Shown: positions 1,868-63,542 of the stretch, piece by piece
How the letters are laid out: every line of letters starts with the position of its first letter
How positions within the stretch are numbered: position 1 is the first letter of the stretch
DNA from: a virus
Lineage: Duplodnaviria > Heunggongvirae > Uroviricota > Caudoviricetes
Reading direction: 5' to 3' (one strand)
DNA length: 64,000 bases
IMG/VR virus record: IMGVR_UViG_3300043438_001962
Notes under the pieces: model-generated
The model's database searches: none
Told to the model about the DNA's origin: nothing
The model's input: the letters and a program-made list of their open reading frames with translations, nothing else
Position numbers and translations under genes: made by a program

Positions 1868-2665
1868 ATGATAAAGAAATTAGTTCACTTTAGTGACTTA
1901 CATATAAGATTATTTAAAGACCACGATTTATATCGAGGAATCTTGAATGATATGTTGGTGCAATTCAAAGAGATTGCTCCGGACAGAATTGTTTTCACCG
2001 GAGATTTAGTTCACTCTAAAAATCAAATGACTCCTGAACTTATTGAGTTTGTTGCTTGGATTCTTACGGAGTGTTCTCAAATTGCTAAAACCATAGTTAT
2101 AATTGGAAACCACGACTTCTTAGAGAGTAACTCTTCAAGGTTGGACGCTCTTACACCAGTGATTGATTCATTGAAAAACGACAACATCGTTTATTTGAAG
2201 AACAGAGGTGAATACGAGGACGATAATGTTGATTGGGTGGTGTATTCATTACTTGACCATAACATTCCACCTGAGATTGAAAAAACGGGTAGATTAAAGA
2301 TAGGTTTATTCCACGGACCGGTTCAGGGATTAACAACCGATATTGGATATAAGTTTGAAACCGGATTTGAAACGGATAAGTTTAACGGATGTGATTTGGT
2401 ATTATGTGGTGATATTCACAAAAGACAAATCTTTAACATACCTGGTGGGAAGAAAGCATATATGGTCGGTTCAACAATCCAACAGAACTATGGTGAAACA
2501 ATAACCAAACACGGATTCGGAATCTACAATCTTGAATCAGATGATTATTCATTTGTTGATTTGGATAATCCAAAACCTTTCTTATCATTTAAAATGAAAT
2601 CATTTGATGATATAATAAACGGAACTGAAAAACTGGTTAACAGTGGAAGTCAAACTAACAACTAG
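1868..2665 (+). CDS. Mre11/SbcD-family nuclease (calcineurin-like metallophosphoesterase; T4 gp47-like)
   Basis: All five phosphoesterase motifs are present in order: DLH, GDLVH, GNHD, GLFHG and GDIH. Confidence 0.85.
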   Translation: MIKKLVHFSDLHIRLFKDHDLYRGILNDMLVQFKEIAPDRIVFTGDLVHSKNQMTPELIEFVAWILTECSQIAKTIVIIGNHDFLESNSSRLDALTPVIDSLKNDNIVYLKNRGEYEDDNVDWVVYSLLDHNIPPEIEKTGRLKIGLFHGPVQGLTTDIGYKFETGFETDKFNGCDLVLCGDIHKRQIFNIPGGKKAYMVGSTIQQNYGETITKHGFGIYNLESDDYSFVDLDNPKPFLSFKMKSFDDIINGTEKLVNSGSQTNN

Positions 2666-3266
2666 TCAATTAAAGTCAGTTCAAGAATATTGTAAGTTAA
2701 ACAATATTGAGGATGTAGATAATTTCATATCAAAATGTTTTACCGAAGGGTATAACATTAACAAATATGGGTTACTAGGTGGTGATTCAGAAAAAGTAAT
2801 GGAGATTGAAGTAATAAAAGAAATACGGGTGGAAGTACCGGTTGAAGTTATTAAAGAAGTTGAGGTGGTTAAAGAAGTTATTAAAGAAATAGTCAAGGAA
2901 GTTCCCGTTGAAACTATTAAAGAAGTTGAGGTTATCAAATATGTTGATAGAGAAGTTATTAAAGAAGTAAGAGTGGAAGTTCCTGTCCCAATTATAGATG
3001 AAATTGGGGGCAAACCTGAACCAATAATTGTGGAGAAAATAGTTGAGGTTGAGAAGATAGTTGAAGTAGAAAAGATTGTTGAGATTGAAAAACCAAACGA
3101 TAAAGTATTACTTCTTCAAGAAACTTTACAGACACTTAAAAAAGAACTATCTTTGAAAAACACAAAGATTGAAGAACTTGAAAATAAAAATAAACAATTA
3201 GAATCTATTGCGGTTAATCAAAAAGCTGTATATTTGAAAGGTTCTAACTTAAATGAAACAATGTAA
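2643..3266 (+). CDS. EV-rich tandem-repeat protein with C-terminal coiled coil
   Basis: It contains repeated EVIKEVEV / KEVPVE units encoded by tandem DNA repeats, followed by a heptad-like K/E/L tail. Confidence 0.5.
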   Translation: MEVKLTTSQLKSVQEYCKLNNIEDVDNFISKCFTEGYNINKYGLLGGDSEKVMEIEVIKEIRVEVPVEVIKEVEVVKEVIKEIVKEVPVETIKEVEVIKYVDREVIKEVRVEVPVPIIDEIGGKPEPIIVEKIVEVEKIVEVEKIVEIEKPNDKVLLLQETLQTLKKELSLKNTKIEELENKNKQLESIAVNQKAVYLKGSNLNETM

Positions 3267-10764: not shown

Positions 10765-11037
10765 ATGAAAGCAATATTAAATTTTATTGATGTATGGGGA
10801 AACAGAATTATGTTTTTCTTAATTATTATCGTGTTCTTTAAAACTTGTACCACTAATGGTAGAGTAGATAAAGTGACAAAAAAAGTTGATACTTTAGAAG
10901 TTAAAATAACTAAAGAAATCAAAATTGAAGGATTAAAATCTGAAAAAAGAATGATTCAAGCGACGGATAGAAAAATTATGGATGTTAACAGACAATCAGA
11001 GATTGATAAAGAGATAACTAAAATCACAAATGATTAA
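10765..11037 (+). CDS. small membrane-anchored coiled-coil protein
   Basis: It has an N-terminal TM segment and a K/E-rich tail. Confidence 0.3.
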   Translation: MKAILNFIDVWGNRIMFFLIIIVFFKTCTTNGRVDKVTKKVDTLEVKITKEIKIEGLKSEKRMIQATDRKIMDVNRQSEIDKEITKITND

Positions 11038-11818
11038 GTCAATAATAAGTTGGGTTAAAGAACATCCGGTAAGAGCAATGTTCTTAATCCCGATACTTTT
11101 AGTTGCGGGTATCTCAATATCTCACGTTGTGTCTTGGTATGATTTAACAAATCCAATTAGTTGGGCTATATACTTATCAATAGCTATTGAAGTTGGTGCT
11201 ATGACCGCATTGGTTGCTGCAACAAACAGAATTAAAGGTGGTGTATGGTTTATGTTCGGATTAGTAACCTTTATACAAATGATTGGTAATATCTTCTTTT
11301 CATTTAAAGAAATTGATGTTAACGGGGATTTATTTAAATCTTGGGTTGAACTAACTTCACCTGTTTGGGAAATGTTAGGTTCTGATATCAATGACGTTGT
11401 ATCTCAAAAAAGATGGTTAGCGTTTTTAGGTGGAGGGTTACTTCCAATCATTTCATTGACATCATTACACTTTTTTGTAAAATATGACGAATTAACCAAA
11501 GAAAGTGACGACGAAATTAAAACCATTGAGGTTGAAGTCATTAAGGAAGTTGAAAAAATTGTTGAAGTCCCGGTAGAAGTTATAAAGGAAGTTGAAAAAA
11601 TAGTTGAGGTAATCAAAGAAATTGAAGTTCCGGTAGAAGTAATTAAGGAAGTTGAAAAAATAGTTGAGGTTGAGAAGATTGTTGAAGTACCCGTTGAGGT
11701 TGTTAAAGAAATTATAGTAACCAATCAACAACCAATGAATGTTAATTACGCGGATTCGACAACTACAACAACAACTAATGATGGTCTTGTTAGATTAAGT
11801 TATGTAAAAAATACCTAA
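11030..11818 (+). CDS. polytopic membrane protein with a C-terminal EV-rich tandem-repeat domain
   Basis: About four N-terminal TM helices are followed by IEVEVIKEVEKIVEVPVEVIKEVEKIVEV ... repeats and a T/N-rich tail. Confidence 0.5.
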   Translation: MIKSIISWVKEHPVRAMFLIPILLVAGISISHVVSWYDLTNPISWAIYLSIAIEVGAMTALVAATNRIKGGVWFMFGLVTFIQMIGNIFFSFKEIDVNGDLFKSWVELTSPVWEMLGSDINDVVSQKRWLAFLGGGLLPIISLTSLHFFVKYDELTKESDDEIKTIEVEVIKEVEKIVEVPVEVIKEVEKIVEVIKEIEVPVEVIKEVEKIVEVEKIVEVPVEVVKEIIVTNQQPMNVNYADSTTTTTTNDGLVRLSYVKNT

Positions 11819-13035: not shown

Positions 13036-13394
13036 TGAAAGATATTGTAACAAACAACAAACAAAATATATTATTAATCATCGTTATTGTATTGGCGGCT
13101 TGGAACATATTTACAACCAATGGAATCAAAACAGATGTTAAATCATATAAAGAAAAGATAGAATCAATTCAAACTGAGATTGATTCGGCTAAAGCGGTTA
13201 ATGAGGGAATTGATATTAAGATTGATTCAGTAAAAGGTAATGTGGTTAAAATTACAAAAGAAATTCATCACATAGATAATAACATAACAATAATTAAAAA
13301 ACAAACAGATGAGAAAGTTAATAGTGTTGACACTCTTACTGCTAACGAGCTTGAGCAGTTTTTCACAAACAGATACAACAAAACCAACAATTAG
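13035..13394 (+). CDS. membrane-anchored coiled-coil protein
   Basis: It has an N-terminal TM segment (ILLIIVIVLAAWNIF). Confidence 0.4.
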   Translation: MKDIVTNNKQNILLIIVIVLAAWNIFTTNGIKTDVKSYKEKIESIQTEIDSAKAVNEGIDIKIDSVKGNVVKITKEIHHIDNNITIIKKQTDEKVNSVDTLTANELEQFFTNRYNKTNN

Positions 13395-13740
13395 TAGTGA
13401 CACTACAAAAGTTAGATTAAAAGTTCCGGTTGCTAAATTAGCGATAAAGGATATTCTAAAAGGTGATGGGTGTGAGGTTGAGTTAAAATTAACTAAAGAA
13501 AAACTTATTAAAACTGAAGAAAGGGAAAAAGAAAAAGATTCTCACATAATTCTTCTTGAAGAAAAAGATAAGAACAATAACTTTATGTTAGGTAAAAAGG
13601 ACGAACAATTAAAAGTTTCTGAAGAATTAACTAATAGTTTACATAAAGAATTAAAAGGACAAAGAACAAAAACTTTCTTATGGAAAGTTGGTACTTTCGC
13701 AGGAATTCTTGCATCAACTTATCTTATTATAACAAAATAG
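13309..13740 (+). CDS. secreted or membrane protein with a Bacteroidetes-type signal peptide and a C-terminal TM
   Basis: The N-terminus reads MRKLIVLTLLLLTSLSSFSQ. It overlaps the upstream ORF by 86 nt, so the start is uncertain. Confidence 0.4.
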   Translation: MRKLIVLTLLLLTSLSSFSQTDTTKPTISSDTTKVRLKVPVAKLAIKDILKGDGCEVELKLTKEKLIKTEEREKEKDSHIILLEEKDKNNNFMLGKKDEQLKVSEELTNSLHKELKGQRTKTFLWKVGTFAGILASTYLIITK

Positions 13741-16894: not shown

Positions 16895-17341
16895 ATGAGT
16901 TTGTATAAAGAATTTTCGGAATTATTACCGTATATTCAATCAGTAAGAAAGATTGAAAAATATTTATCGTTTGATATTAGTTTCCCAACATCATGGAAAC
17001 TACCTAAAAAATATGTCCAAGAAGATAAAGTAATGGAACAGGAAAATAAAATAGCTGGTAACCGTACATTTTCTTTTGTTGCGGAAATTAATGAAAGTGA
17101 TGTAGAACAAGTAACTGAAAATTTACAAAACATTATAAAATATAATCTTGAGAGAGAAGAAAAAGATAGATTATTTCAAAATAAAGTTGATGAGTTAAAA
17201 TCTATTTTTGAAAAACAAAATTTAGAAAGTTTACAGAATTTAAAATTTGATTTAAAATCTAAAACATTAAGTAAATTAAAACTTGACGATAATGAAGAAG
17301 AGCTTACAACAACTAGAGTGGTTGCAGAACGAGATAATTAA
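16895..17341 (+). CDS. hypothetical protein
   Basis: ORF only. Confidence 0.4.
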   Translation: MSLYKEFSELLPYIQSVRKIEKYLSFDISFPTSWKLPKKYVQEDKVMEQENKIAGNRTFSFVAEINESDVEQVTENLQNIIKYNLEREEKDRLFQNKVDELKSIFEKQNLESLQNLKFDLKSKTLSKLKLDDNEEELTTTRVVAERDN

Positions 17342-18342: not shown

Positions 18343-19260
18343 ATGGAGAATTTTTATCAAACACTAGGTGTGAATGAAAACGCAACTCAAGATGAGATTA
18401 AGAAAGCATATCGTAAATTAGCGGTAGAACATCATCCGGACAAAGGTGGTAATGAAGATACTTTTAAAAAAATATCACAAGCTTATGATACGGTAGGTGA
18501 CGAAAGTAAACGAAAACAATACGATAACCAAAGAAGTAACCCATTTTCTAATATGGGTGGTGGAGGGTTTAATCCTTTTGAGGATATGTTTCAAAATGGT
18601 TTTTACCAACAAAGAAGAAGGGCGGCTCCTGATAAAATTATTGAAGTTACCGTTGGTGCAATACAATCTTATAATGGTTCAGAAAAAAGTTTTACGTATA
18701 ATAGAAAACATAAATGTGAACCGTGTAATGGTAATGGTGGTGAAAGAATAAATTGTAACTCTTGTGGTGGGGAAGGGTTTATTACACAAAGAGTTGGTTC
18801 AGGGTTATTTGTCCAACTTGTGAGACAAACTTGTAATTCATGTGGTGGTAAAGGATTTTCATATAAAACGGTTTGTGGTTCGTGTAATGGAGAAACAACC
18901 ACTACTAAACCTGAGACAATAACAATTAAACTTCCTCACGGAATAGATGAGGGTCAATTTTTGAAATTGCAAGGTAAAGGTGACTATGTGAATGGTGTTT
19001 ATGGAAATCTAGTAATTAAAGTTAAAGTAACTCCTGAAGATAATTTTGAAAAATCAGGTGATGATTTGATATATAATGCGTATTTTAATTTAGATACTAT
19101 TAGAAATGAAAAGTTAGATATTAAACACCCAAAAGGTACAATGTCTATAAAATTACCTGAAGAATTTGATACAGAAAAACCCCTTCGAGTAAAATCAAAA
19201 GGGTTTCATAATACGGGTGATTTATTCGTTAAGCTACACGTTAAATTTAAACGTAATTAG
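18343..19260 (+). CDS. dnaJ: DnaJ (Hsp40) homologue with a J-domain, G/F-rich linker and four CxxCxGxG zinc-finger repeats
   Basis: It has an HPD motif ([10 protein letters not shown]), a [12 protein letters not shown] linker and the repeats CEPCNGNG / CNSCGGEG / CNSCGGKG / CGSCNGE. Confidence 0.85.
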
Positions 19261-38590: not shown

Positions 38591-39532
38591 GTGAAAGAAT
38601 TAATTAAGAAATTTTTAAAAGAACAACTTGAAGGTGGTGAGGGAGGTAATCCTTTATCACGTAAAGAGATTATTCTATTTAAGTATCTTAACAAAAACCG
38701 AAAAGACGCTGGTACCCAAAAAGAATTATTGAACTTGGTAAGAGGTATGATGTCTTTCATTGGTCGTCCTGAATCTGATGCTAAATTTTACTATGAAGTA
38801 TACACGGCAAATTTTAGACCGGATGGTGATTATGAGAATTTAGACCAACAAAGTTTCAGAGATTTTAGGCAATTCAAACAAAGAAAAACACCTAACAACG
38901 GGGCGTATGAATATACTGCTGCTAAGATACCGTTTAAAGGTTCAAACCTTGAAGGTTATTGGGATGTTAATGGTAAAAACGAATGGTATTATGTTGTAGT
39001 TTCTTACGGATGGTATCCATTATTTTTATTTATTAATAATATGTGGTACAGAGTTATGGATAGTTATTCTTCTTCAACATCTAAACAAATATCACATTCT
39101 AATCCGGTAAGATATAATTCAGGTTTAAAGGCGGATGTTATGTCTGTTACACCAAGTGAAATGAAAAGTTTGATTGCTGGTAAAGAAGTAACTGATATCA
39201 AAACAAGTAGAGTTTCTAATTTTACTGCAAATAACGAAGTGAAACGTAAGATAATTGGTCTTAAAAAATTAGTTAGTGGTGGTTATGGTGAAAATGCTCA
39301 CAAAGTTAGTTTTACCATAGATGATATTAATGAAGAAGGTGGTAAAGTTAAGATAAAAGTTAAAGTAAATAAGGCGGGGAAAATGGTTGATAGAAAAATG
39401 GTTGCTGACCCCAACTTTAAAGACAACCCTGAATTATTAAGTGATATTGGAAAAACAATTAAACAAGAAATGTTGATGACTTATCCGAATTACTTAACGG
39501 ATGACAATACAGAAATAGAATTAGTATATTAA
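38591..39532 (+). CDS. hypothetical protein (GTG start)
   Basis: ORF only. Confidence 0.4.
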   Translation: MKELIKKFLKEQLEGGEGGNPLSRKEIILFKYLNKNRKDAGTQKELLNLVRGMMSFIGRPESDAKFYYEVYTANFRPDGDYENLDQQSFRDFRQFKQRKTPNNGAYEYTAAKIPFKGSNLEGYWDVNGKNEWYYVVVSYGWYPLFLFINNMWYRVMDSYSSSTSKQISHSNPVRYNSGLKADVMSVTPSEMKSLIAGKEVTDIKTSRVSNFTANNEVKRKIIGLKKLVSGGYGENAHKVSFTIDDINEEGGKVKIKVKVNKAGKMVDRKMVADPNFKDNPELLSDIGKTIKQEMLMTYPNYLTDDNTEIELVY

Positions 39533-42540: not shown

Positions 42541-43074
42541 ATGAAACTTATATTAACAGAATCTAAATACAAAAACATATTATTCAAATACTGGGACAAA
42601 ATGGGTGGTAAAGTTGATGATAATTTTATTTCTATGTTTGGATTAGATGATGTTAATAATTACTTTACCTATAACCAAGCCTACAAGTACCTTATTGAAT
42701 GGAGAGGTGAAAAAGAATCCAAAGAACTCGCCAAAAGTTTATTACTTCAGAATCCACACCATGTAGATAACTTTGGTACATATGATTTTTTCTTTGAGGT
42801 TACAGATATTAAAAATTGGGGATTAAATGAGGATGAACCAAATGTTGTTGTTAAAGTAAAGGTTGATGATTTAGGTGGTCATCTTGATATAGACGGTGAC
42901 CATAAAACATTAGAAGACGCTTTGGATAATGATGACTACGGATGGGAAGTTGATGATGAGGTTAATTGGGGTATTAATGATTATTTCAAGGATAACATAA
43001 CATCACAGACAGGAATACAAATCATATTTGATAGACCTAAATATAGCAGTAGAATTTTTAATCTTAATATATAA
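42541..43074 (+). CDS. member of the MK(V/L)I(I/L)TE-leader paralog family
   Basis: The N-terminus MKLILTESKYKNILFKYWDK resembles the 56345-58280 array. Confidence 0.45.
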   Translation: MKLILTESKYKNILFKYWDKMGGKVDDNFISMFGLDDVNNYFTYNQAYKYLIEWRGEKESKELAKSLLLQNPHHVDNFGTYDFFFEVTDIKNWGLNEDEPNVVVKVKVDDLGGHLDIDGDHKTLEDALDNDDYGWEVDDEVNWGINDYFKDNITSQTGIQIIFDRPKYSSRIFNLNI

Positions 43075-45677: not shown

Positions 45678-46496
45678 TTAGATTCTAACAACTCCGTTAC
45701 TATCTCTATTAATTAATTCAGGGTTTTCATTCATATGAAATAAAAATGTATCACCATTTTCATAACCTTCATACTCTTCAGATATTTCATAATATTCTCT
45801 CATGATTAATGTTTGGTTGTTGTTATAAAAATTATTTGAATCTTCAGTATCAATTTGTTCGTGGTGTTTTATATTGGCAAAATACATTTTCCAACGACCA
45901 CTCCAAGAAACAAAATCAGTATATATAACTTCAGAAGAATCGGATGATTCAACTTTACCTGTTGAATCACAAGTATAACAACCCGTCTCACCATCGCCAC
46001 CACAATAATTACAAGATTCGGAAGTGTGACCATTACAATGTTCACAAGTTTGTTTCCCATCACCTTCACACATATCACATTCTTCACCAGCATCTTCATC
46101 CATACCTGAACCACCACAATATCTACAATCCTCTTCACCGGAGCCATCACAAATACCACATTCTACTTCACCTGTACCATCACAATTATCACAATTTTCA
46201 TTACCATGACCACCACATTCAGGACATTCAACTTCAGGTTCTGAATTGTATATTTCAACTAATTCAATAGTGAACATATTATTTTCAATTCTATCATAGT
46301 CCTCATCAATATCTGAACCCATATTAAAACGAGGAACTAATAATGAAAACATAACTAAATCTTTTGCTTTTAGTATAAAAGATAACGATTCAAAATTGTT
46401 ATCGTTAAGAATGTCTCGATATACTCCTGTAGGGTTTTTATTGATAAATGATTTTCCGGTTTTTCTAACTAACGAAAGTAATTTGTGTTTTTCCAT
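45678..46496 (-). CDS. protein with about eight consecutive CxxCxGxG (DnaJ-type zinc finger) repeats
   Basis: The repeat region reads ECPECGGHGNENCDNCDGTGEVECGICDGSGEEDCRYCGGSGMDE ... CDMCEGDGKQTCEHCNGHTSESCNYCGGDGETGCYTCDSTGKVE. Confidence 0.5.
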   Translation of the reverse strand: MEKHKLLSLVRKTGKSFINKNPTGVYRDILNDNNFESLSFILKAKDLVMFSLLVPRFNMGSDIDEDYDRIENNMFTIELVEIYNSEPEVECPECGGHGNENCDNCDGTGEVECGICDGSGEEDCRYCGGSGMDEDAGEECDMCEGDGKQTCEHCNGHTSESCNYCGGDGETGCYTCDSTGKVESSDSSEVIYTDFVSWSGRWKMYFANIKHHEQIDTEDSNNFYNNNQTLIMREYYEISEEYEGYENGDTFLFHMNENPELINRDSNGVVRI

Positions 46497-46527: not shown

Positions 46528-47613
46528 ATGAGAATTATAGTTAAAGAAATTCAATATTCTAAAATATTAGAGGACGTGGAGGTAGAGCCATCAAAAACAA
46601 CTGTCAAAAGTATTTGTGATAGTGAGAAATTTTGTAAGGCACAAGGTAAGATTACTTTTGGTCAATTAAAAGCCATAGTTGAAAGTGCAACTAAAAGAAG
46701 AATATTTAAACACGTTGGTGAAGGTGGTGTAAAAGCTACCATTAGATTACTACCTTGGTTTATTCCTCAACTATTTGTTGCGGGTGCGATTGCCGGAGTT
46801 GTAAGAGCGGTAAATAAAATATTAGCTCCAAGTTTAACTGAAACAGAAAACTATAAAACCTTTTGGGGTAAGGCAATTCTTAAATCGTTTAAGATTGCTG
46901 AAGGTGATATTAATTTGTCTGACCCTTTATCTAAAATCTTTTTTATCTCTGACGGACTAATGAATATGTTAGATGATAGATATAAAGTTAAGTTTGCGAA
47001 ACATATTGCAAACATTGCCAGTGAAAAACCGGATGATGAAGAAGTTCCCGAATATTTTGTTGAAAATGAATTAAGAAGATGGGTTAACGAAAAGTTCTTG
47101 TTAAATCCGCCATTACAATCAAGATTAAATGAACAAGAAGAACCGGTTGATACTACACCTGACTTTAATAAGTTGGTTTATCTTCCTGAAGAAAAGGCGA
47201 TGATAGGTGCTTATATGATTACTAAAGATTTACCTAATATGATTGAGGTTTTGAATATCAAAGAGTTTTTGGATAATTCAGGTTTATTCATGGATGGTGC
47301 TGAATCATATAATATTTACATTTATTTCTCAAAGTTACCAAAATCTCAAATAGAAATATTAGGACCGGTTGAAGGTAAAGAAGGGTTTGTTTATATCAAA
47401 ATACCTTATTGGTTATATAAGAAAAATGTTGAGGGATTAGGTATTAAAAGAAGTTTGGTAAAGAAACGATTATCTATTGATAGAAGTCAAGTTTATGGTG
47501 ATTACCTTAAATTGATTAATGACCCTAATGTTGAAAAATATTTTTTTGAGGTTGATAAGGATGAATCAAGTAGACAAAGATTCAAATCATACCAAAGACA
47601 TTATAAGGGATAG
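46528..47613 (+). CDS. hypothetical protein with one TM segment
   Basis: The hydrophobic segment LLPWFIPQLFVAGAIAGVV is present. Confidence 0.45.
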   Translation: MRIIVKEIQYSKILEDVEVEPSKTTVKSICDSEKFCKAQGKITFGQLKAIVESATKRRIFKHVGEGGVKATIRLLPWFIPQLFVAGAIAGVVRAVNKILAPSLTETENYKTFWGKAILKSFKIAEGDINLSDPLSKIFFISDGLMNMLDDRYKVKFAKHIANIASEKPDDEEVPEYFVENELRRWVNEKFLLNPPLQSRLNEQEEPVDTTPDFNKLVYLPEEKAMIGAYMITKDLPNMIEVLNIKEFLDNSGLFMDGAESYNIYIYFSKLPKSQIEILGPVEGKEGFVYIKIPYWLYKKNVEGLGIKRSLVKKRLSIDRSQVYGDYLKLINDPNVEKYFFEVDKDESSRQRFKSYQRHYKG

Positions 47614-51390: not shown

Positions 51391-51417
51391 AACCCTCCAC
51401 ATCGGAGGGTTTTTTTA
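51391..51417. terminator. bidirectional terminator (CCCTCC acatc GGAGGG)
   Basis: The hairpin is flanked by A and T runs between convergent genes. Confidence 0.65.
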
Positions 51418-52005
51418 TTTTACTTTATACTTTGTGAAGTCGGTTGATAATGGTTTTTCATTTTTGAAGTAATATACTTCTGTCTTTCCATCATACTTAA
51501 TTGTTTTTCTATAAGCGGTTGGAACGGTTGCTCCGGATGGAAGTTTAATTGATTTTGGTCCGAAAATACATCTGATTTCAACAACAACTACTTTATTTAT
51601 TTTTGCTAGTTCTCGTTCTCTTACCTCAAGTAATCTCCAAGTAGTTCTGTTAAGGTTTTCTTGTTGTAGTGAGCAATTCAGATAAGTGAATGTTTTATGA
51701 AGAGTTTGTTTATCACAATTAAAGTCGGCAGCAGGTGCAAGATGACCTTTATCGTAAGGGTTTTTCTCGTAGTCACCATTATCGGATGTTTTAATTGAAT
51801 CACACACATAGAAGTCCATTCCGGCTCTTGACGCAGTTCCATTTGGACACTGAACGGTATAACGAATAAATTTAGGTTGTTCCAATTTCTCTGAATATAC
51901 AATCTCAAATATTGGTGTTTTAACCACAATACTATCTCGTAATACTTTTTGTGAGAATGATGTGAATGTGATTAGGGTAAGTAGTAATAATAGAATGTTT
52001 TTCAT
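51415..52005 (-). CDS. secreted non-specific DNA/RNA endonuclease (Serratia-type, DRGH motif)
   Basis: It has the signal peptide MKNILLLLLTLITFTSFSQ and the active-site block YDKGHLAPAADF. Confidence 0.65.
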   Translation of the reverse strand: MKNILLLLLTLITFTSFSQKVLRDSIVVKTPIFEIVYSEKLEQPKFIRYTVQCPNGTASRAGMDFYVCDSIKTSDNGDYEKNPYDKGHLAPAADFNCDKQTLHKTFTYLNCSLQQENLNRTTWRLLEVRERELAKINKVVVVEIRCIFGPKSIKLPSGATVPTAYRKTIKYDGKTEVYYFKNEKPLSTDFTKYKVK

Positions 52006-54922: not shown

Positions 54923-55294
54923 ATGAAAATTAAAATTAGTGAGGATAAATTAAATTTATTAAAGGATTTTGTCTTTGATGGGCTTAACATTGATAAGTAT
55001 GATTCTTTTCAATCAAGAAGTATTGATAAATTTTATATAGAATTTTTAACACCTGGTACGAGACAAAATGTTATTTCAAGATATTACCCTGAGATTAATT
55101 TAGCCGTGGTAAATGATGAGAAGTTTTATGATTTGATTAGTAATATGGTTGGTTCACATAACGTATATGATTTAATTAAAGATGATTTAATTAAACAAAT
55201 TTTTAAAGTGTATTCTGATAGATTTAGCAAAAGAAATTATGGTGAAATCCGAAATCTAAAGTATAGAAGTGACGAGGAATTTAATAAAAAATAA
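54923..55294 (+). CDS. hypothetical protein (MKIKISEDKLN leader, possibly family-related)
   Basis: The N-terminus is similar to the MKVIITENKL leaders. Confidence 0.4.
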   Translation: MKIKISEDKLNLLKDFVFDGLNIDKYDSFQSRSIDKFYIEFLTPGTRQNVISRYYPEINLAVVNDEKFYDLISNMVGSHNVYDLIKDDLIKQIFKVYSDRFSKRNYGEIRNLKYRSDEEFNKK

Positions 55295-55694: not shown

Positions 55695-55723
55695 AAACCC
55701 TCACTTAACAGTGGGGGTTTTTA
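55695..55723 (+). terminator. terminator (CCCTCAC ttaaca GTGGGGG)
   Basis: It has the same stem sequence family as the hairpins at 36109 and 41386. Confidence 0.6.
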
Positions 55724-55745: not shown

Positions 55746-56345
55746 ATGAAAGATTTAATTAGAAAAATATTACGAGAGGAAGTTAGTAGAAGATATACAA
55801 AATCTAATCCAAACATTGAGAAAACAATTATCCGACACATGGATAAATTGATGTCTCAAACTACCCGAATTATTCCACCACTTGATGAGAATTATGGTAT
55901 TTTCAATGAAGAATGGTGTAAAGGAGGTAATGTTGTAATTGAGGCTAGATATCATATAGATGATGAAACCGATGAATTTTTTTCAGGTGATTTATATGTT
56001 AATGATAAAGAGATTGATTTTTTATCAAATGTTTTACAGGTAAGGAAAGCTTATATACTTAATGTAATAACTGAATGGTATGATGATAATTATGCTAGCA
56101 AGTTTGGTCAGGAAGTTAATCATCCTGAATTTGAGATTTTTGAGTCGTTTGAAACAGATTCTAATCGTAAATGTTATCAGATGATTGATACTGATAAGTT
56201 AAGTAGAGAAGAAATGATTGATTATTTAGATAAGGAGACGGCATATAGACGAACTGAAATAGAAGGATTTTCAAGTGATAGGCTAAAAAGTACATACAGA
56301 AGTGTTTATAACTCAAGATTAAATAATATTGGAAACAGAAACTAA
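55746..56345 (+). CDS. paralog-family member with an MKDLIRKILREE leader
   Basis: The leader is shared with 60635..60991 (MKLQDTIKRILIEE). Confidence 0.45.
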   Translation: MKDLIRKILREEVSRRYTKSNPNIEKTIIRHMDKLMSQTTRIIPPLDENYGIFNEEWCKGGNVVIEARYHIDDETDEFFSGDLYVNDKEIDFLSNVLQVRKAYILNVITEWYDDNYASKFGQEVNHPEFEIFESFETDSNRKCYQMIDTDKLSREEMIDYLDKETAYRRTEIEGFSSDRLKSTYRSVYNSRLNNIGNRN

Positions 56346-56653
56346 TGAAAGTAATAATTACTGAAAATAAGTTAAATAGTTCAATTGAGAAGTATATTCT
56401 TAATGGATATCCTATGGTTAAAAGGGTATTTTTTACAACAAAAAAAATTAGGTTAGCAAGTGAACCAAATAGTAAGGGTGAGAATGATATTGTTAGAAAT
56501 ATAGTAAACATTGACTTCATTGATGGTAAGATGACTCACAGTCCAAGTTATGTGGGAAGACAAATAAGAAATGATATTAATTCAATGTTTGGTTTTGATA
56601 TTGATAAATATGGCTCAGATTGGGGTATGGAAGTTAAAATGGTAAGGGACTAA
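56345..56653 (+). CDS. MKVIITE-leader family member 1
   Basis: It starts MKVIITENKLNSSIEKYILNGY with a TAATG junction to the upstream gene. Confidence 0.55.
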   Translation: MKVIITENKLNSSIEKYILNGYPMVKRVFFTTKKIRLASEPNSKGENDIVRNIVNIDFIDGKMTHSPSYVGRQIRNDINSMFGFDIDKYGSDWGMEVKMVRD

Positions 56654-56958
56654 TGAAAGTAATTGTAACAGAAAATAAACTCCGGGATATACAATTAAAT
56701 TATCTGAATACAATGAAGTATGATTATGCTGATGTTGATAATTTTATAATATTGTATTACCCTGATAATGCGGATGATTATGAATTGTCTGATGTTATGA
56801 TGGAATATGACTTTGAAGATTTTAGATTATATATTGATTCCAACTTTGTGAAAGATTTTGGATTAACATACTTTCCAAATGAAGATGATGCCCAACCATT
56901 TATTAGAGATTGGTTTGAAGATAAATTTGGGGTTAAAGTAAAATATGTTGAATCGTAA
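56653..56958 (+). CDS. MKVIITE-leader family member 2
   Basis: It starts MKVIVTENKLRDIQLNYLNTMKY with a TAATG junction. Confidence 0.55.
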   Translation: MKVIVTENKLRDIQLNYLNTMKYDYADVDNFIILYYPDNADDYELSDVMMEYDFEDFRLYIDSNFVKDFGLTYFPNEDDAQPFIRDWFEDKFGVKVKYVES

Positions 56959-56959
56959 T

Positions 56960-57571
56960 ATGAAATTAATAATAACAGAATCACAATATAAAAAACTACA
57001 AGAACAACGTGTGAAGGGTGAAGAAATTACTCCCGGAAGATATGTTGTTCATTCATCCAATCCTTCAAATAGAGAGAATATTTCAACTACAGGTCTTCAA
57101 GTATCTTTGGGGGAATGTTATTTAATTTATGCCGATAGTAATTACGGGGAAGATGAAGAATGTGTTCCTGCGGTATTTGCGACAGATAGTATTAAGAAAA
57201 AAGATATGTTTGATTCAACTTATGATGATGACATATGGGTAATTGATACTGAAAGAGCTCGTGTACAATGGTATAAAGATGCTCATTTTGATGGTGGAGA
57301 TACTAAACATATTGTTACCTTTGAAGATGTTCCGGCGGATGCCGTTAGATTAATATACAAAGGAACAGGTGGTGATACTTGGAATCATCATGATGAAGAA
57401 GAAGAATTAACATTAAGTGAAATGATTAAGTTAGATATTAAAGTTGGTGATACTCTAATGGGGGGTAAATTTAAAAACAAAAAGGTTGTTGTTAAGACAA
57501 TTGATACAAATGAAAAAGGTGATGTATTAATTAACGGAAAACCATTATTAAGATTTAGAATTATAAAATAA
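56960..57571 (+). CDS. MKVIITE-leader family member 3
   Basis: It starts MKLIITESQYKKLQEQR. The start was set at the internal Met that matches the family. Confidence 0.5.
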   Translation: MKLIITESQYKKLQEQRVKGEEITPGRYVVHSSNPSNRENISTTGLQVSLGECYLIYADSNYGEDEECVPAVFATDSIKKKDMFDSTYDDDIWVIDTERARVQWYKDAHFDGGDTKHIVTFEDVPADAVRLIYKGTGGDTWNHHDEEEELTLSEMIKLDIKVGDTLMGGKFKNKKVVVKTIDTNEKGDVLINGKPLLRFRIIK

Positions 57572-57900
57572 TGAAAGTAATAATAACTGAAAGTAGACGT
57601 GATAAATTAGCCAAACAAGAATTGGACAATGCGTTCTCCAATATGTATGAAGATGTGAATTATATGACAGATTCAAGGGGGGAACATAAGCGTATTGAAT
57701 ATCGTAATGGTGATGGTGTTATTATGCTTTATGGTGATACTGATAAAATATTGTATATTTGTGAAGATGTTACCAATCCACTTAGTTTTTTTAGTTATAC
57801 GCCAAAACAACTTAAAGATATTGTTGGTGAATGGTTTTCAGATTTTTTTGAATTACCGGTTCACTATGTCCAACATGTAAATAAATCTATATTAAACTAA
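57571..57900 (+). CDS. MKVIITE-leader family member 4
   Basis: It starts MKVIITESRRDKLAKQELDNAF with a TAATG junction. Confidence 0.55.
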   Translation: MKVIITESRRDKLAKQELDNAFSNMYEDVNYMTDSRGEHKRIEYRNGDGVIMLYGDTDKILYICEDVTNPLSFFSYTPKQLKDIVGEWFSDFFELPVHYVQHVNKSILN

Positions 57901-58280
57901 TGAAAGTAATAATATCAGAAAATAGAGTTAATCAGATAATACGTAAATATTTGGATGAAACCTTTTATCCGGATTATGGGTGGTCTTATCCCGATGTTTA
58001 TCAAAGAGATGTTGAACAATATGGTGATGTTAATTTTTTTATTAATGACCAAGATTCTTATATCTATTATGGGTGTAATGCAAATGCTGGTCCGGAAGAT
58101 GAATTCTTTGCGGGTTATGGTCATCTACATAATTATAAATGTCCTTTGCTTTTAATATATCCAAAAGTTGGTGGGGAACTAACATCTTTATTTGGTAATA
58201 GATGGAAACCCGTATTCAAGGAATGGTTTGAGGAAAATACAGGATTAGAGGTTGCTCAAATAACTGACGATTATATATAA
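57900..58280 (+). CDS. MKVIITE-leader family member 5
   Basis: It starts MKVIISENRVNQIIRKYLDETFY with a TAATG junction. Confidence 0.55.
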   Translation: MKVIISENRVNQIIRKYLDETFYPDYGWSYPDVYQRDVEQYGDVNFFINDQDSYIYYGCNANAGPEDEFFAGYGHLHNYKCPLLLIYPKVGGELTSLFGNRWKPVFKEWFEENTGLEVAQITDDYI

Positions 58281-58303: not shown

Positions 58304-58331
58304 TAATGCCCGTAATAACGGGCATTTTTTA
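58304..58331. terminator. bidirectional terminator (ATGCCCG taataa CGGGCAT)
   Basis: The hairpin plus T-run sits between convergent genes. Confidence 0.65.
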
Positions 58332-59126: not shown

Positions 59127-59876
59127 ATGAACTTACATGAACAAACAAATAGAATCAAACAGATGATGGGATTACTTGTTGAGCAAGAACAAAAAGGTTA
59201 TTCCGGAACAAATAGAATCATCTTAATTGGGCCACCAACAGTGGGAAAATCAACCGTAGCTGAAGAACTTGCCCAACAACTTGGGGTTGAGTATGTTATA
59301 CTTGACAAGTTACAAGAAAAGTTTGGTTATGGTGAGGGAAAAGAGTTTGAGTTGGTAAAATCAGTTTTATCACCAGATTTTGAGAAATACAATACGCCAT
59401 CAATATTAGATTTTGGTGGGGGACACGTTTACAATGATGGTGTTAAAGAATTATTAACCCAATATCCTAATGTAATTTTATTAATGCCATCACAAGATTC
59501 TGAAAAATCGGAGGAGTTATTAAGAAAAGGTAACACAGAGAGATGGACAGGATTTATGGACCAAATCATTCAAGGATTGCAAAGTGGAAACCACAATCAT
59601 ACAAAAGAAAAAGAAACCGAGCTTATTGATAAGTTACAAAGAATGAAACAAGGTGAAGGTGGAAAATTTGATAAGGAAGATTTACCTGATACTGAAGAAA
59701 TGAAAGGTTGGGGTGGATTAGACATGGAGAATGATTGGAATAAGTATGTTCCATTAACTAAAGAAGAGGATGTTAAAAACAAAGAGATTGCCAAACATAT
59801 TGTAAGTGTGTACAATGAGGATGGTAAAAGAAGAAATAAAACAGAAATTGTTAAAGACATTATTGATTTACTATAA
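59127..59876 (+). CDS. P-loop kinase-like protein carrying an MNLHEQTNRIKQMM leader
   Basis: Its Walker A IILIGPPTVGKSTVAEELAQQLG is shikimate/gluconate/nucleoside-monophosphate-kinase-like. The N-terminal leader is shared with 59877, 60993 and 63069. Confidence 0.5.
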   Translation: MNLHEQTNRIKQMMGLLVEQEQKGYSGTNRIILIGPPTVGKSTVAEELAQQLGVEYVILDKLQEKFGYGEGKEFELVKSVLSPDFEKYNTPSILDFGGGHVYNDGVKELLTQYPNVILLMPSQDSEKSEELLRKGNTERWTGFMDQIIQGLQSGNHNHTKEKETELIDKLQRMKQGEGGKFDKEDLPDTEEMKGWGGLDMENDWNKYVPLTKEEDVKNKEIAKHIVSVYNEDGKRRNKTEIVKDIIDLL

Positions 59877-60635
59877 ATGAACCTACAAGAAAACATACAT
59901 AGAATCCATCAGATGATGGGAGTAATCAATGAAGGGTTACATGATACATCTTGGGAAAATGACGAGGGGGATAAAATCACCCTTATTGATTTATTAAACG
60001 CCACAGAAGATATTCCGGTGAGGAAAATATCTGTAGAAGAATTAAAGCCGCACTTATTATTGTGGGATGGGGATGAAGATGAGGTTAGAAAGATAGAAAG
60101 TGCTGACTTACAATATCCTATATTAATCTTTGTTAATGATGATGGGGAGTTCATAACAATTATAGATGGGCACCACAGAGCACAGAAAGCGGCAAGACAA
60201 GGATTAGAAACAATCAGAGCAAAAGTAATACCGATTAATTTTTTACCAAAACATATAAAACGAGTGTTTAAACATATGATGAGCGAGGGTAAAGATGCTT
60301 TTGTTTCAAGAGCTTCTTTTGACCAGGAGTATGAGGAAGAATATCCAAAGTGGGGAAAAACTATGGTTAAGTTTTTAGATATGGCAATGAACGCATACGA
60401 TGAGAATGATAATGTAATTATATTGTTTAATGATAAAGACCCTAGCAAAATTTTAATGAGATACGATAAAAAGAACGAACAAATATGGTGGGACTATTCA
60501 TTACATGATGAATTAGTTCAATTTGTTCCTTTTGGGTATGTGTCAAGACATTACAGATATGCGGTACAGGATTACTTTAAGAAACATTTCCCCGAATATG
60601 GGGTTAGACAAATAACCGGAGCAAATATTGGATAA
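59877..60635 (+). CDS. ParB-like nuclease-domain protein carrying an MNLQENIHRIHQMM leader
   Basis: The ParB/Srx-like block reads PILIFVNDDGEFITIIDGHHRAQKAARQG. Confidence 0.5.
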   Translation: MNLQENIHRIHQMMGVINEGLHDTSWENDEGDKITLIDLLNATEDIPVRKISVEELKPHLLLWDGDEDEVRKIESADLQYPILIFVNDDGEFITIIDGHHRAQKAARQGLETIRAKVIPINFLPKHIKRVFKHMMSEGKDAFVSRASFDQEYEEEYPKWGKTMVKFLDMAMNAYDENDNVIILFNDKDPSKILMRYDKKNEQIWWDYSLHDELVQFVPFGYVSRHYRYAVQDYFKKHFPEYGVRQITGANIG

Positions 60636-60991
60636 TGAAGTTACAGGACACCATAAAAAGAATACTAATAGAGGAGGCAACAAAAGATTTGTCACCGATA
60701 TTAGAGAGCTTATTAAATAAGATGATGGTTAATAAAAACCGAGACATTATCTGTGAAATAAAAGTTAAACATCCGGACAATAGGACAAAACTACCACATT
60801 CGGATAATAAGTATTTACATTATCGAGTTGACATCACATTCATCGGGGGATATGGTACTGACTTTTTTCCGGTAACTCAATCGGTAGCAAACAAATATGA
60901 TTCATTAATTGATGAGGTGTGGAATATAGTTTATGATTTCACAGGAAAGTCGGTGGATATATTTCATAAAAAAGTGGTAAACTGTGAATAA
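60635..60991 (+). CDS. paralog-family member with an MKLQDTIKRILIEE leader
   Basis: The leader is similar to that of 55746. Confidence 0.4.
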   Translation: MKLQDTIKRILIEEATKDLSPILESLLNKMMVNKNRDIICEIKVKHPDNRTKLPHSDNKYLHYRVDITFIGGYGTDFFPVTQSVANKYDSLIDEVWNIVYDFTGKSVDIFHKKVVNCE

Positions 60992-60992
60992 T

Positions 60993-61424
60993 ATGAACTT
61001 AATAGAAAACATACAAAGAATTAATACCTTAATCTCTGAAAATGACAGAGGTGAAACCATTAGACATTTGATTGACAAGATGGGTGTTGCTGACGCCATT
61101 AAAATGGCGGGGAATTATTATTTGATTGAGCCATACTTAAAAGAGATTGACAAAGTAAATTATATTAAAGAAAAAGTTTCCCAAATTTCCGATGAGTTGG
61201 GTGGAAATGGTTTTGGTCTTGTTGAGGTTAATTCCGCACCAATTTTATATAGTGAAGATGAAGATGAATTAAGACAAATAGAATATTTAGGTAGAAAACA
61301 ACTTTATGTCGATGTTTATTCTTCAGATAGTAATTATTCTAACTTAGGTGATTTCAAAGTTAATTATGAAAGTTTACCGGGACAAATACTTGATGAGTTG
61401 GTTGAGATATTAGTTAATTACTAA
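60993..61424 (+). CDS. paralog-family member with an MNLIENIQRI leader
   Basis: The start is the ATG immediately after the upstream stop. The track start is a GTG. Confidence 0.45.
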   Translation: MNLIENIQRINTLISENDRGETIRHLIDKMGVADAIKMAGNYYLIEPYLKEIDKVNYIKEKVSQISDELGGNGFGLVEVNSAPILYSEDEDELRQIEYLGRKQLYVDVYSSDSNYSNLGDFKVNYESLPGQILDELVEILVNY

Positions 61425-61484: not shown

Positions 61485-62213
61485 TTAATATGTTATCCCA
61501 TTTTTAAGAACGGATTCTATTTGTTCAGTTGACTTACCTCCACGAAGTTTTGTGGTTACACCATTAGTTAAAACCGAATCCACAATATCATCCGACAATC
61601 CGGCAATTTCGTGGGTTGAGGTTATACCATTAGATAGAACTGAATCTACAATAAAAGGTTTATCCCTATTGGTAAATCCCATAGATGTTACACCCTCATT
61701 TAAAACCGAATCCACAATTGTTAATGATTTATTTGCCGGACGACTTAATGTTATACCATCATTTAGAGCATCCTCCACTATTTCATTTCTAAAAACTCCG
61801 AACTCCACCTCTGTTGAGGTTATTCCGTTATTTAAAACTGAATCCATTGATGTGTTAGGAATTGACCCGGCGATTAAACGGGGGGATTCATTATTTTTTA
61901 ATACTGTAGACACCATTTTAGATGATACTGACATCGTGGTTTTTGTTGATGTTACGTCACAATTAAGAACTAACTCCACAAATTCTTTAATAATGGGTTC
62001 ATATACCTCTCTATCAATGGAATACATATTAAAGAATTCGGTGAAGAACTGATATCTCCAATATAGTTTCCCGGTCTTTACCAATTCCAAATACCAATAT
62101 TTTTTCTCTCTATCAATAAACCACAAGGATTGGTCGTGTCTAATCATTTCTACATTAGACAAGTCCTGAATTAGGTTGTTAAAAATAAATTGTTTGGTTC
62201 TATCTGAAATCAT
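61485..62213 (-). CDS. repeat protein with five copies of an approximately 24-aa DSVLxNG(I/V)T(S/T) unit (minus strand)
   Basis: The copies are DSVLNNGITSTE, DSVLNEGVTSMG, DSVLSNGITSTH, DSVLTNGVTTKL and ESVLKNGITY. Confidence 0.45.
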   Translation of the reverse strand: MISDRTKQFIFNNLIQDLSNVEMIRHDQSLWFIDREKKYWYLELVKTGKLYWRYQFFTEFFNMYSIDREVYEPIIKEFVELVLNCDVTSTKTTMSVSSKMVSTVLKNNESPRLIAGSIPNTSMDSVLNNGITSTEVEFGVFRNEIVEDALNDGITLSRPANKSLTIVDSVLNEGVTSMGFTNRDKPFIVDSVLSNGITSTHEIAGLSDDIVDSVLTNGVTTKLRGGKSTEQIESVLKNGITY

Positions 62214-62262: not shown

Positions 62263-62631
62263 TTAATCTTCTATATGATATTTTGTTGTATGATATCTAC
62301 CACAGTCATTACAATGGTAAGTAGTTTCCTGAAATTTAACTAAACGAGGTTTTATTTTATATCTTTCTTTAAACCAAGGAATAAATATATCATTTAGTTT
62401 ATCTCCATCAAGACCAAATATAGTTTTTAAATCATTTTCTAAGTCGGGATTTATTATGGTAACCACATCTGAACTACGATTATATGTGAATATGGTTAAC
62501 CCATCATCATCCTTATAGTGGGTATACATATAACTACCTTTAGCATTATACTTTCTCAAATCACCATAGTTATTGTTTAACCATTTGGTTACAATACGAT
62601 TCATTTTACTTTCACTTATAATCATTTTCAT
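62263..62631 (-). CDS. MKMIISE-leader family member (minus strand) with a C-terminal CxxC ... H
   Basis: It starts MKMIISESKMNRIVTKWLNN and ends HCNDCGRYH. Confidence 0.5.
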   Translation of the reverse strand: MKMIISESKMNRIVTKWLNNNYGDLRKYNAKGSYMYTHYKDDDGLTIFTYNRSSDVVTIINPDLENDLKTIFGLDGDKLNDIFIPWFKERYKIKPRLVKFQETTYHCNDCGRYHTTKYHIED

Positions 62632-62643
62632 AAAGCGTGGGGA

Positions 62644-62913
62644 TTATTCAATAGAGTATATAGGTGTATCAGGAAATTTATCTCTCAAATAAATTTTTAA
62701 CATCTTATTTGTTTTATTACCAAAGAACCCTTCCAAGTTTAATTCCGTAGATAAACCACCATAATAAAAAACTCCTCCCCCAACATATCCAAAGATATTA
62801 TTATTTTTATCTATAAATTCTCGGGTTTTAATATTGTATGATAAGTCATATTGTGAATCAATATATTTCACAAACACATTATACATTCTACTTTCAGTTA
62901 TAATCATTTTCAT
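62644..62913 (-). CDS. MKMIITE-leader family member (minus strand)
   Basis: The start was set at the internal Met giving MKMIITESRMYNVFVKYIDSQYD. The track ORF extends to 63015. Confidence 0.5.
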   Translation of the reverse strand: MKMIITESRMYNVFVKYIDSQYDLSYNIKTREFIDKNNNIFGYVGGGVFYYGGLSTELNLEGFFGNKTNKMLKIYLRDKFPDTPIYSIE

Positions 62914-63068: not shown

Positions 63069-63542
63069 ATGAACTTACACGAGAATATACATAGGATAAA
63101 AGAAATGATGGATTCAATTGATGAGAACCGATTCGAAAAAATGGGGGAAGAACAATATAAGTCCTGTTCAATGTCAGATATTACAAGAATGGAGATAATA
63201 GATAATTTCTTCAAACAAGTTAATGAAAATCCAAACCACAATATAGAGAAACCTGATTACGATATGTTAGTGGATGATTGGGACGGTTATGATGACCAAG
63301 TATATATTCAAAACGAATTAGATAATGATATAATAGTATTCTACGAAGGATGGGTAGATTCTTGTTGGTCAGCAGTATATAACAAACCACAATATAAAGA
63401 TATGTCCGAATCAGAAGTTATAGAGAGTATCGTAACAAATAGATTCCCACGAATAGGTGAAGAGTTTAATATGGTAATAAAAGATTATGGATACTTTTAT
63501 GATGGTGGATATATTATGTATGTAGTATTCAAAAAATACTAA
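63069..63542 (+). CDS. paralog-family member with an MNLHENIHRIKEMM leader
   Basis: The leader is nearly identical to that of 59877. Confidence 0.5.
   Translation: MNLHENIHRIKEMMDSIDENRFEKMGEEQYKSCSMSDITRMEIIDNFFKQVNENPNHNIEKPDYDMLVDDWDGYDDQVYIQNELDNDIIVFYEGWVDSCWSAVYNKPQYKDMSESEVIESIVTNRFPRIGEEFNMVIKDYGYFYDGGYIMYVVFKKY

Follow-up and report, generated by a model that had tools for sequence, protein, structure and literature searches.

A probable portable N-terminal leader peptide on the genes of a shuffled accessory array in an uncultivated AT-rich phage

In bacteriophage T4, a 10-residue N-terminal propeptide, the capsid-targeting sequence (CTS), is the sole feature common to otherwise unrelated polymorphic internal proteins (PMC9026906, PMC3012670, PMC12373910), and the T4 prohead protease gp21 cuts after L/I-X-E (PMC9026906). 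We analysed an array of five genes, P1 to P5, that begin with MKVIITE-like leaders in a stretch of 64,000 nucleotides (hereafter the window) of the viral record IMGVR_UViG_3300043438_001962 (Caudoviricetes), and we conclude that the leader is very probably a modular N-terminal tag that acts at the protein level. The array is like the T-even internal proteins (Ip1-3 and at least ten others) in that a short N-terminal leader is the only common feature of unrelated small proteins and in that the genes are clustered in polymorphic accessory loci; the leader, like the CTS, ends in [L/I]-x-E, the gp21 site, and is transferable to other bodies. Unlike the T4 system, however, the array proteins are without homology to T4 proteins, the leader is found on about one-fifth of the open reading frames (ORFs) of the window and on at least 60 body families that include enzymes and sigma factors, it runs on into an amphipathic helix that is also conserved, two or three leader types at least are interchangeable, and packaging and cleavage are predicted here from sequence only.

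Three other described systems bear comparison with the array. Paralogous families are common in jumbo phages, and gp53 and gp54 of SPN3US are 34% identical overall with identical first 15 residues and a Glu-specific protease motif (PMC5694885). These giant-phage head and ejection paralogues, together with the inner-body proteins of phiKZ, are like the array in being diverged paralogues whose identical N-termini carry a Glu-specific protease motif; however, their propeptides mostly exceed 100 residues and have A/S-x-E, whereas the leader described here has ~7-18 residues and I-x-E, and is spread far past one paralogous family. In the promoter-early stem-loop (PeSL) cassettes of T4-type hyperplastic regions, short repeats flank ORFans, and insertions, deletions and replacements break in the repeat (PMC2839356); breakpoints in the array also fall in its leaders, where zero spacing would put them in any case. 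The PeSLs are ~100-bp intergenic units of promoter and terminator, whereas the element studied here is ~20 nt of coding sequence in a spacer-less operon and is conserved as a peptide; the array genes abut or overlap, leaving no ~100-bp intergenic promoter and stem-loop for each ORFan. Lastly, the encapsulation peptides of bacterial microcompartments (BMCs) are amphipathic helices of 15-20 residues with a poorly conserved linker, and target diverse enzymes into a protein shell (PMC4594438). A similar pattern is seen in two further leader types, B (MNLQENIHRI…) and C (MKDLIRKILREE…), but the setting is that of a phage with no BMC shell genes, and the leader of the array (type A) starts with a non-helical hydrophobic segment, M-K-φ-φ-I-T-E (φ, hydrophobic). 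The resemblance to encapsulation peptides is one of form only.

Conservation and spread of the leader peptide

The presence of five plus-strand genes with MKVIITE-like leaders and TAATGAAAGTAAT junctions, as described in an earlier note on this DNA, was confirmed. The overlap of stop and start that the note reported for each gene was found at four of the five junctions (TAATG), but not at that of P3, which reads TAA-T-ATG. When the window was searched with the 19-nt junction pattern TAATGAAAGTAATAATWAC, allowing at most 3 mismatches, six matches were obtained against 0.46 expected, and five of the six were the array junctions; a DNA repeat search recovered five copies of a 21-nt family, 86-100% identical, and otherwise no substantial repeat. 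TAATG overlaps are commonplace in this genome and not specific to the array: they occur at 12 of the 91 adjacent plus-strand gene pairs in the window, and 8 of the 12 are on leader-less genes.

The earlier note had described the synonymous positions of the leaders as nearly identical, which was not confirmed in that form. In codons 2-7 of the five leaders, 37 of the 48 codon pairs for the same amino acid were identical, compared with 23.8 ± 4.4 expected from genome-wide codon use (P ~0.005) and 27.0 ± 4.3 expected from codons 2-10 of non-leader genes (P ~0.015), P values that are generous because the region was chosen post hoc for looking similar. In the phage group, the proportion of Ile, Val and Thr codons ending in A was 33% in gene bodies, 56% in codons 2-7 of non-leader genes and 68% in leaders. 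With A-ending usage of 68%, about 31 of the 48 pairs are expected to be identical by our arithmetic, and the excess represented by 37/48 is therefore not significant. The small nucleotide excess in the window is accounted for by a start-proximal preference for A-ending codons that is general to non-leader genes, and wobble identity is barely above what this bias and amino-acid conservation produce together. In the relatives, the same leader peptide is encoded with ATA, ATT and ATC, with ACA, ACT, ACC and ACG, and with GAA and GAG, Ser8 is specified by both AGY and TCN codons, and leaders that head unrelated bodies have a synonymous identity to one another of 0.58-0.63, close to the codon-bias expectation. 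Because synonymous codons vary freely and synonymous identity fits codon bias, the conservation of the leader lies at the amino-acid level; selection on the nucleotides, one of the alternatives raised earlier, finds no support in these data or in the general nature of the start-proximal bias. The feature shared by P1 to P5 is a peptide, not a nucleotide element.

The leader follows the pattern M-K-φ-φ-I-[T/S]-E, after which comes an amphipathic helix whose positions 10, 13, 14, 17 and 18 are hydrophobic. An alignment of 237 non-redundant leaders gave M1 K2 I3 I4 I5 T6 E7 [N/S]8 [Q/K]9 [Y/L/R/F]10.. [L/I/V]13 [I/L/V]14.. [I/Y/L/W]17 [L/I]18. Three hydrophobic residues before T-E, with a charged amphipathic helix following, do not make a Sec, Tat, lipoprotein or signal-anchor-release (SAR) signal, which would need a hydrophobic core of at least 10 residues behind a basic N-region. 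The corresponding DNA pattern, ATGAAARTWATWATHACWGAAARY, was found in at least 120 viral stretches of IMG/VR, whereas bacterial and archaeal genomes, 596 Gb in all, yielded 13 matches; at least 6 of these 13 start a ~240-aa protein (MKVIITENYxEMS…LGLATGS) that we take to be NagB-like. The leader is virus-specific and essentially absent from bacterial genomes. Among the viral loci (at least 120, with a G+C content of 24-34%), at least 200 ORFs of 52-545 aa carry it, up to nine per locus, and their bodies fall into at least 64 clusters that are unrelated by BLAST. The Pfam domains recognised behind the leader, which begin 30-160 residues past it, include Phage_lysozyme (4), LysM, PG_binding_1, Hydrolase_2, GH19, extracytoplasmic function (ECF) sigma factors (2), DUF5872 and others. 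In loci that had not been selected via the DNA pattern, the core motif lay directly after M-[K/R] at the ORF start in 154 of 168 occurrences; 7 were mis-called starts and 4 were internal. Orthologues appear to gain or lose the leader: a 467-aa window protein encoded at 31667 begins with MKKLIKESG, whereas its orthologue in L032 (52% identity) begins with MKIIITESQFRMMIKESG, and only one of the two thus has the canonical leader (L032, L001 and so on are labels of related metagenomic loci).

Other N-termini recur in a like manner in the window and its relatives. A second type, MNL(Q/H/I)E(N/Q)I(H/Q/N)RI(K/H/N)…, heads unrelated proteins encoded at 59127-59876, 59877-60635, 60993-61424 and 63069-63542 (plus strand) and at 60635-60991; one MNL-leader protein is P-loop kinase-like, with a Pfam domain from residue 30, and relatives have MNL-leader arrays of up to seven genes (L009 6046-10339, for example). 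A third type, MK(D/E/N)LI(K/R)(K/R)(I/F)L(R/K)E(E/Q), is found on tandem genes with unrelated bodies, at 55746-56345 and at 38591-39532 (GTG start) in the window, and at L001 7692-9021 and L008 8540-10001. Composite N-termini (MKRVLRLSESDLAKVVRRVIKEEE, MKKVVRLTENDLNRLVKKVI and MGNKIVLTNKDLHQIVKQIKEQ), in which a K-φ-φ-x-φ-T-E stub is joined to a …L.R.VK+VI.E helix, occur at 26110, 31312 and 36166 of the window, at 17079 and 19591 of L166, at 12653 of L008 and at 9574 of L010. Because these composites join stub and helix, they suggest that the three types may be versions of one two-part leader. An early L-x-E is present in the other types too, as MNL-x-E and as …IL-R-E.

The operon, its gene bodies and their order

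The five array genes and the gene preceding them, KIL (named for its leader MKDLIRKILREEV), form one tightly packed six-gene operon between terminators, with hairpins only at the operon ends and none at the internal gene boundaries. Promoter-like sites were not enriched (22 found, 31 expected). The KIL orthologues in L001-L028 have the N-terminus MK(D/E/N)LI(K/R)KILREEV. The segment 55688-55756 is conserved in L002, where it lies upstream of P4 as the first gene.

According to the earlier note, the sequence downstream of the leaders diverges completely, which is true of the DNA but not of the proteins, since P2, P4 and P5 are homologous in profile comparisons. Orthologue alignments of P1, P4 and P5 (groups A1, A3 and A2, respectively) were compared by hhalign with the group of the minus-strand gene at 62263-62631 (A4). 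The hhalign probability of the match to A4 was 98.3% over 95 columns for P5, 98.0% over 97 columns for P4, 96.6% over 87 columns for P2, used as a single sequence, and 94.8% over 85 columns, leader included, for P1. After the first 20 residues had been trimmed, P2, P4, P5 and A4 were still related (P from 1e-4 to 1e-8), with P ~1e-4 to 7e-6 for P2 and an hhalign probability of 94.4% for P4, and P1 gave P=7e-4, which makes its membership borderline. A C-terminal motif, …FG…(I/L)..WFE..fg(L/V).V, is common to P2, P4, P5 and A4. P3 is not a member of the family by profile comparison. The paralogues are only 23-27% identical to P5, and the duplications are therefore old; together with the separate orthologues of P1, P3, P4 and P5 in relatives, which are 60-90% identical, this figure leads us to reject the very recent duplications that had been offered as one explanation of the similar leaders. 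P2, P4 and P5, and more weakly P1, are thus old, diverged paralogues within a large family of ~100-125-aa proteins. A word-indexed search gave 518 clusters of this family at 90% identity, and an exhaustive search (E<=1e-3) gave 1,115 representatives at 50% identity, mostly of 100-125 aa and matched from residue 1.

In the AlphaFold2 (AF2) models, residues 1-6 are a low-confidence coil and a helix starts at residue 7; residues 1-6 of the leader are thus placed outside the predicted fold. Where the family domain is internal in two-domain fusion proteins, the leader is degenerate or absent. The metagenomic relatives P0304, P0318, P0328, P0357 and P0347 are proteins of 200-500 aa in which the family domain is fused to other domains or to a second copy, and the Met-leader of the internal copy is kept in P0318 and decayed in P0328 and P0357.

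P3 is a mosaic of two domains that are found as separate genes with their own leaders in L004. Its N-domain is matched, with 64% identity from residue 21, in a paralogue that has a leader of another type, MSLQDTIRRILREE / MSLQDTIRRILREES, in L004 16064-16474, and its C-domain stands alone behind MKLIITESQYE in L004 8883-9077. The AF2 model of P3 was unusable as a fold (predicted local distance difference test score, 51). Some of the P3 orthologues have an extra C-terminal domain of ~105 aa (P0277, P0280, P0284, P0287, P0294 and P0295 were examined).

The array is flanked by a 123-aa gene at 54923 and a minus-strand gene at 58329, both conserved, and between these flanks gene order and content differed in every relative compared. 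The order is KIL, P1, P2, P3, P4, P5 in the window; P4, KIL, P1, P3, P5, X in L002; KIL, X, P4, P1, P5, X in L001; P3 (C-domain only), P4, KIL, P5, P1, X, X in L004; and P3, KIL, P4, …, X, P5, X in L006. P4 has shifted position in the L002, L004, L006 and L008 arrays and is duplicated in tandem in L027 and L028, and no P2 orthologue was found in the other arrays. Blocks of blastn homology between the window and its relatives continue across a gene body and end in the leader of the next gene, whichever gene that is; the homology breakpoints lie in the first 12–25 nt of ORFs, and the conserved 5' region of the operon is joined to different first genes ~10-14 nt from the ATG. Cassette swapping at the leader, an idea of the earlier note, agrees with the permuted order and with the breakpoints in leaders; these are not proof, however, because abutting genes without a spacer leave no other viable place for a breakpoint. 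Recombination mediated by the leader is plausible as a by-product.

Leaders that are identical within one genome were also found on unrelated genes. The adjacent, non-orthologous genes 9021 and 9364 of L001 have identical 24-nt leaders, and the unrelated minus-strand genes 988, 2179 and 2567 of L142 have the same 20-nt leader, ATGAAATTTATAATTACGGA, with a rare F3 and a rare ACG codon; in the P3 leader of L002, the first 12 nt are those of the P2 leader of the window and the remainder is that of the P3 leader. The identical leaders hint at occasional gene conversion or leader swapping. In a comparison made per locus, with genes that had not been selected through the DNA pattern, amino-acid identity of leaders was 0.668 within loci and 0.620 between loci (P<0.001), and synonymous identity was 0.611 within and 0.579 between loci (P ~0.02), a small effect.

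Table 1. Coordinates of the array, its operon and further leader genes in the window
Feature	Position	Strand	Details
KIL, first operon gene	55746..56345	+	199 aa (JGI gene call too); leader MKDLIRKILREEV, C-type
P1	56345..56653	+	102 aa; leader MKVIITEN; possibly a distant member of the small-protein family
P2	56653..56958	+	101 aa; leader MKVIVTEN; family member, in the window's own lineage only
P3	56960..57571	+	203 aa; leader MKLIITES, helix and linker, then two unrelated domains (21-137; ~150-203)
P4	57571..57900	+	109 aa; leader MKVIITES; family member
P5	57900..58280	+	126 aa; leader MKVIISEN; family member
Junction and leader 1 (TAATG overlap, codons 1-7)	56343..56365	+	sequence and repeat search
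Equivalent junctions and leaders 2-5	56651-56673, 56958-56980, 57569-57591, 57898-57920	+	sequence and repeat search
Intrinsic-terminator-like hairpin closing the preceding unit	55695..55720	+	11-bp stem, 5 GC pairs, T-rich tail
Bidirectional terminator hairpin at the operon end	58305..58326	both	9-bp stem, 5 GC pairs, T-runs on either strand
Family member outside the array	62263..62631	-	122 aa; leader MKMIISES; C-terminal CxxC...H tail
Family member outside the array	62644..62913	-	89 aa (JGI gene call too); leader MKMIITES
Unrelated protein with the same leader type	42541..43074	+	177 aa; leader MKLILTESKYKNIL; singleton body cluster
Unrelated protein with a leader variant	46528..47613	+	361 aa; leader MRIIVKEIQYSKILE; body clustering

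Possible functions of the leader

A portable signal that is found at the N-terminus only and is conserved at the protein level would have to be recognised by something common to the phage clade. The best overall explanation, which we hold tentatively and at somewhat short of an even chance, is that one shared phage machine reads the leader as an N-terminal tag for targeting or processing, with the T4 CTS as its nearest likeness. A specific form, in which the tag directs capsid targeting and is then cleaved off, we regard as the likeliest mechanism, though itself at less than even odds and no surer than the general explanation. The leader would dock the protein in the core of the assembling prohead; a Glu-specific prohead protease would remove the leader behind E7, and the mature protein would then be ejected into the host. 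The arrays would in that case be arsenals of injected accessory or anti-defence proteins. The near-identical ~20-nt leader DNA at gene boundaries would serve as in-frame microhomology, and recombination at the leaders would, as a by-product, delete, duplicate or reorder whole ORFs.

Capsid targeting is favoured because I5 and E7 are conserved and fit the L/I-x-E prohead-protease motif at the sequence level. Across the paralogues, M1 and E7 are invariant, I5 is nearly so and residue 6 is variable; within each orthologue set, I5 and E7 are invariant and position 6 is again variable. A second [L/I]-x-E, ending at residue 15, is present in 23% of leaders compared with a background of 1.3%. Several observations weigh against capsid targeting. 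Packaging and cleavage of the leader proteins are predictions from sequence; no prohead protease, capsid or scaffold gene was found in the window or in 10 kb on either side, the flanks consisting of unannotatable proteins and more leader genes; and the array proteins have no sequence similarity to Pfam, PHROG or PDB entries. The [L/I]-x-E motif is short and common in proteomes rich in K, E, I and L (~1.3% per position), and leader-type N-termini stand on about one-fifth of the window ORFs by our count, whereas T4 has a handful of CTS proteins. The lysozymes and sigma factors may just as well be cytoplasmic proteins of the usual kind. Moreover, helix 7-21 packs on the family domain at high confidence in the predicted structure, and part of the leader may therefore be structural in the family.

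The same properties could be read as those of a tag with another destination, which might dock at a phage or host hub or compartment through its amphipathic helix, mark clients of the phage-encoded DnaJ and the DnaK of the host, or act as an N-terminal degron for timed proteolysis of accessory proteins. Modularity and N-terminal specificity fit such a tag equally well, and the helix has hydrophobic residues at i, i+3, i+4, i+7 and i+8 together with a spacer, as in encapsulation peptides (PMC4594438). A DnaJ-like protein is encoded in the window (18343-19260), and sigma factors and P-loop kinases are not obviously virion cargo. N-terminal recognition motifs of ClpX include a Met-basic-hydrophobic type. 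We nevertheless consider a different destination unlikely: no shell, compartment or adaptor gene was identified, the invariant I5 and E7 around a variable residue better fit a protease site than helix docking, and the MKφφITE segment is non-helical in the models. It is improbable that the leader is instead a reusable translation-start module, either an A/U-rich unstructured 5' coding region or a favourable nascent peptide, or both, in a host that uses little Shine-Dalgarno pairing. The amino acids stay the same whichever serine codon family, and whichever Ile or Thr codon, is used, conservation with helical periodicity reaches ~residue 18, E7 is invariant whereas a constraint on the mRNA would allow K, N or I codons, and other genes of the same operons start well without a leader. 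A translation-start module would be in keeping with the strictly start-proximal position of the motif, with the preference for A-ending codons at positions 2-7 in all genes (56% against 33%) and still more in leader genes (68%), with weakly folded start regions (-30..+40; mean minimum free energy -3.7 kcal/mol, compared with -5.1 for other genes), and with the absence of a clear Shine-Dalgarno sequence upstream of the five array genes.

The idea that the ~20-nt junction is kept by selection because cassettes recombine there goes back to the earlier note, and would make the junction a coding counterpart of T4 PeSLs or integron attC sites. In favour of this idea are the permuted order and gene gain or loss in every relative, the homology blocks that end inside leaders, the hybrid P3 leader of L002, the identical leaders on non-orthologous genes in L001 and L142, and the slightly higher synonymous identity within loci (P ~0.02). 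Synonymous sites are otherwise free, however, and the within-genome excess is small (0.611 vs 0.579); genomes that differ in the DNA still keep the motif as a peptide, leaders are also found on isolated genes and on both strands, zero spacing puts viable breakpoints at the leader under any mechanism, and no recombinase or integrase was seen adjoining the arrays. Selection for exchange at the junction is accordingly quite improbable. That the array is merely a tandemly duplicated family with the N-terminus as its most conserved part is very improbable and insufficient on its own, since the same leader is found on P3 and on at least 60 unrelated bodies, lysozymes and sigma factors among them, and is gained or lost between orthologues and degenerate when the domain is internal; duplication does agree with the profile homology of P2, P4, P5 and the 62263 and 62644 genes, with the size of the family (1,115 clusters at 50% identity) and with the tandem P4 copies of L027 and L028. 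A structured RNA element for coupled translation, also suggested earlier, is essentially refuted. Stop and start do overlap at four junctions, but the junctions had no Rfam match at E<=1, folding at the starts is weaker than in other genes, TAATG is used genome-wide, including 8 other, leader-less junctions, and synonymous sites vary.

The targeting-tag reading can be extended, though we find the extension doubtful, to a proteome-scale version of the CTS. The clade would use interchangeable address peptides (MKφφITE plus helix, MNLxENIxRI… and MK(D/E)LIxKILREE…) to route much of its accessory proteome to the capsid or to another phage-built compartment, with removal at I/L-x-E and with the shared leader DNA as an in-frame linker for exon-like shuffling of ORFs and domains. 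The cargo would comprise lysozymes, sigma factors, kinases and hundreds of ORFans.

Genome setting and significance

The accessory-gene region that holds the array is hyperplastic, and the phage, which is uncultivated, has ~30% GC. Among the products of the window are replication and recombination proteins of phage type and a sigma factor; no tRNAs were found in it. No close relative was found among 50,697 deposited phage records by megablast of the region or by tblastn of P5, an SbcC-like protein and the 20-aa consensus leader; the relatives are metagenomic viral contigs of 115-320 kb, and near-identical copies occur on contigs of up to 215 kb in several metagenome samples, with an identical P3 on a contig of 215,582 bp. 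The five array proteins and their neighbours gave only sub-threshold noise against Pfam and PHROGs, and the leader strings had no match in a full-text literature search. Many large AT-rich phages that have not been cultivated carry the leader, and it is missing from Pfam, from PHROGs, from solved structures and from the literature searched.

An attempt to identify the host through leader matches in bacterial genomes failed, the 13 matches being mostly unrelated N-termini that we presume to be NagB-like. Two genes, at 51415-52005 (minus strand) and 13309-13740 (plus strand), encode secreted-looking proteins with signal peptides ending …SFSQ, and the former has an Endonuclease_NS Pfam match. Signal peptides of this kind and the absence of obvious Shine-Dalgarno sequences may, we speculate, hint at a Bacteroidota host.

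Among other genes of the window, the DnaJ-like protein mentioned above (plus strand) was recognised by its CxxCxGxG zinc-finger repeats, and a 272-aa protein consisting mostly of CxxCxGxG-type repeats (45678-46496, minus strand) was likewise identified by motif only. Two different plus-strand genes (2643-3266 and 11030-11818) encode long runs of E/V/I/K peptide repeats (…EVIKEVEKIVEVPVEV…), and the long antisense ORFs across them are a by-product of the repeat. A 242-aa protein with about six (D/E)SVL(N/S)NG(I/V)TST-like repeats (61485-62213, minus strand) is encoded in the stretch that separates the MNL-leader genes from the two family members on the minus strand. Directly upstream of the window start, L164 149-8798 (minus strand) contains four genes for S/T/N/G/C-rich proteins of 1,724, 101, 739 and 301 aa, which have no Pfam or PHROG match and no leader and may be fibre-like structural proteins.

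In kind, the array is akin to the internal-protein/CTS system of T-even phages joined to the shuffling of hyperplastic regions (PMC2839356), though its scale is much greater and its leader types are interchangeable. Should the leader prove to be a signal for packaging or targeting, injected or compartment-targeted proteins of a large group of uncultivated giant phages could be listed from sequence alone, and such a listing would hold candidate anti-defence proteins, injected sigma factors and lysins; the leader would also be a ready tag for loading foreign proteins. The peptide tag and the tight packing of the operon would then make up an in-frame cassette system with fast turnover of accessory genes. 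Even under another function, the leader would be a portable N-terminal peptide on more than 60 unrelated families that annotation pipelines currently miss.

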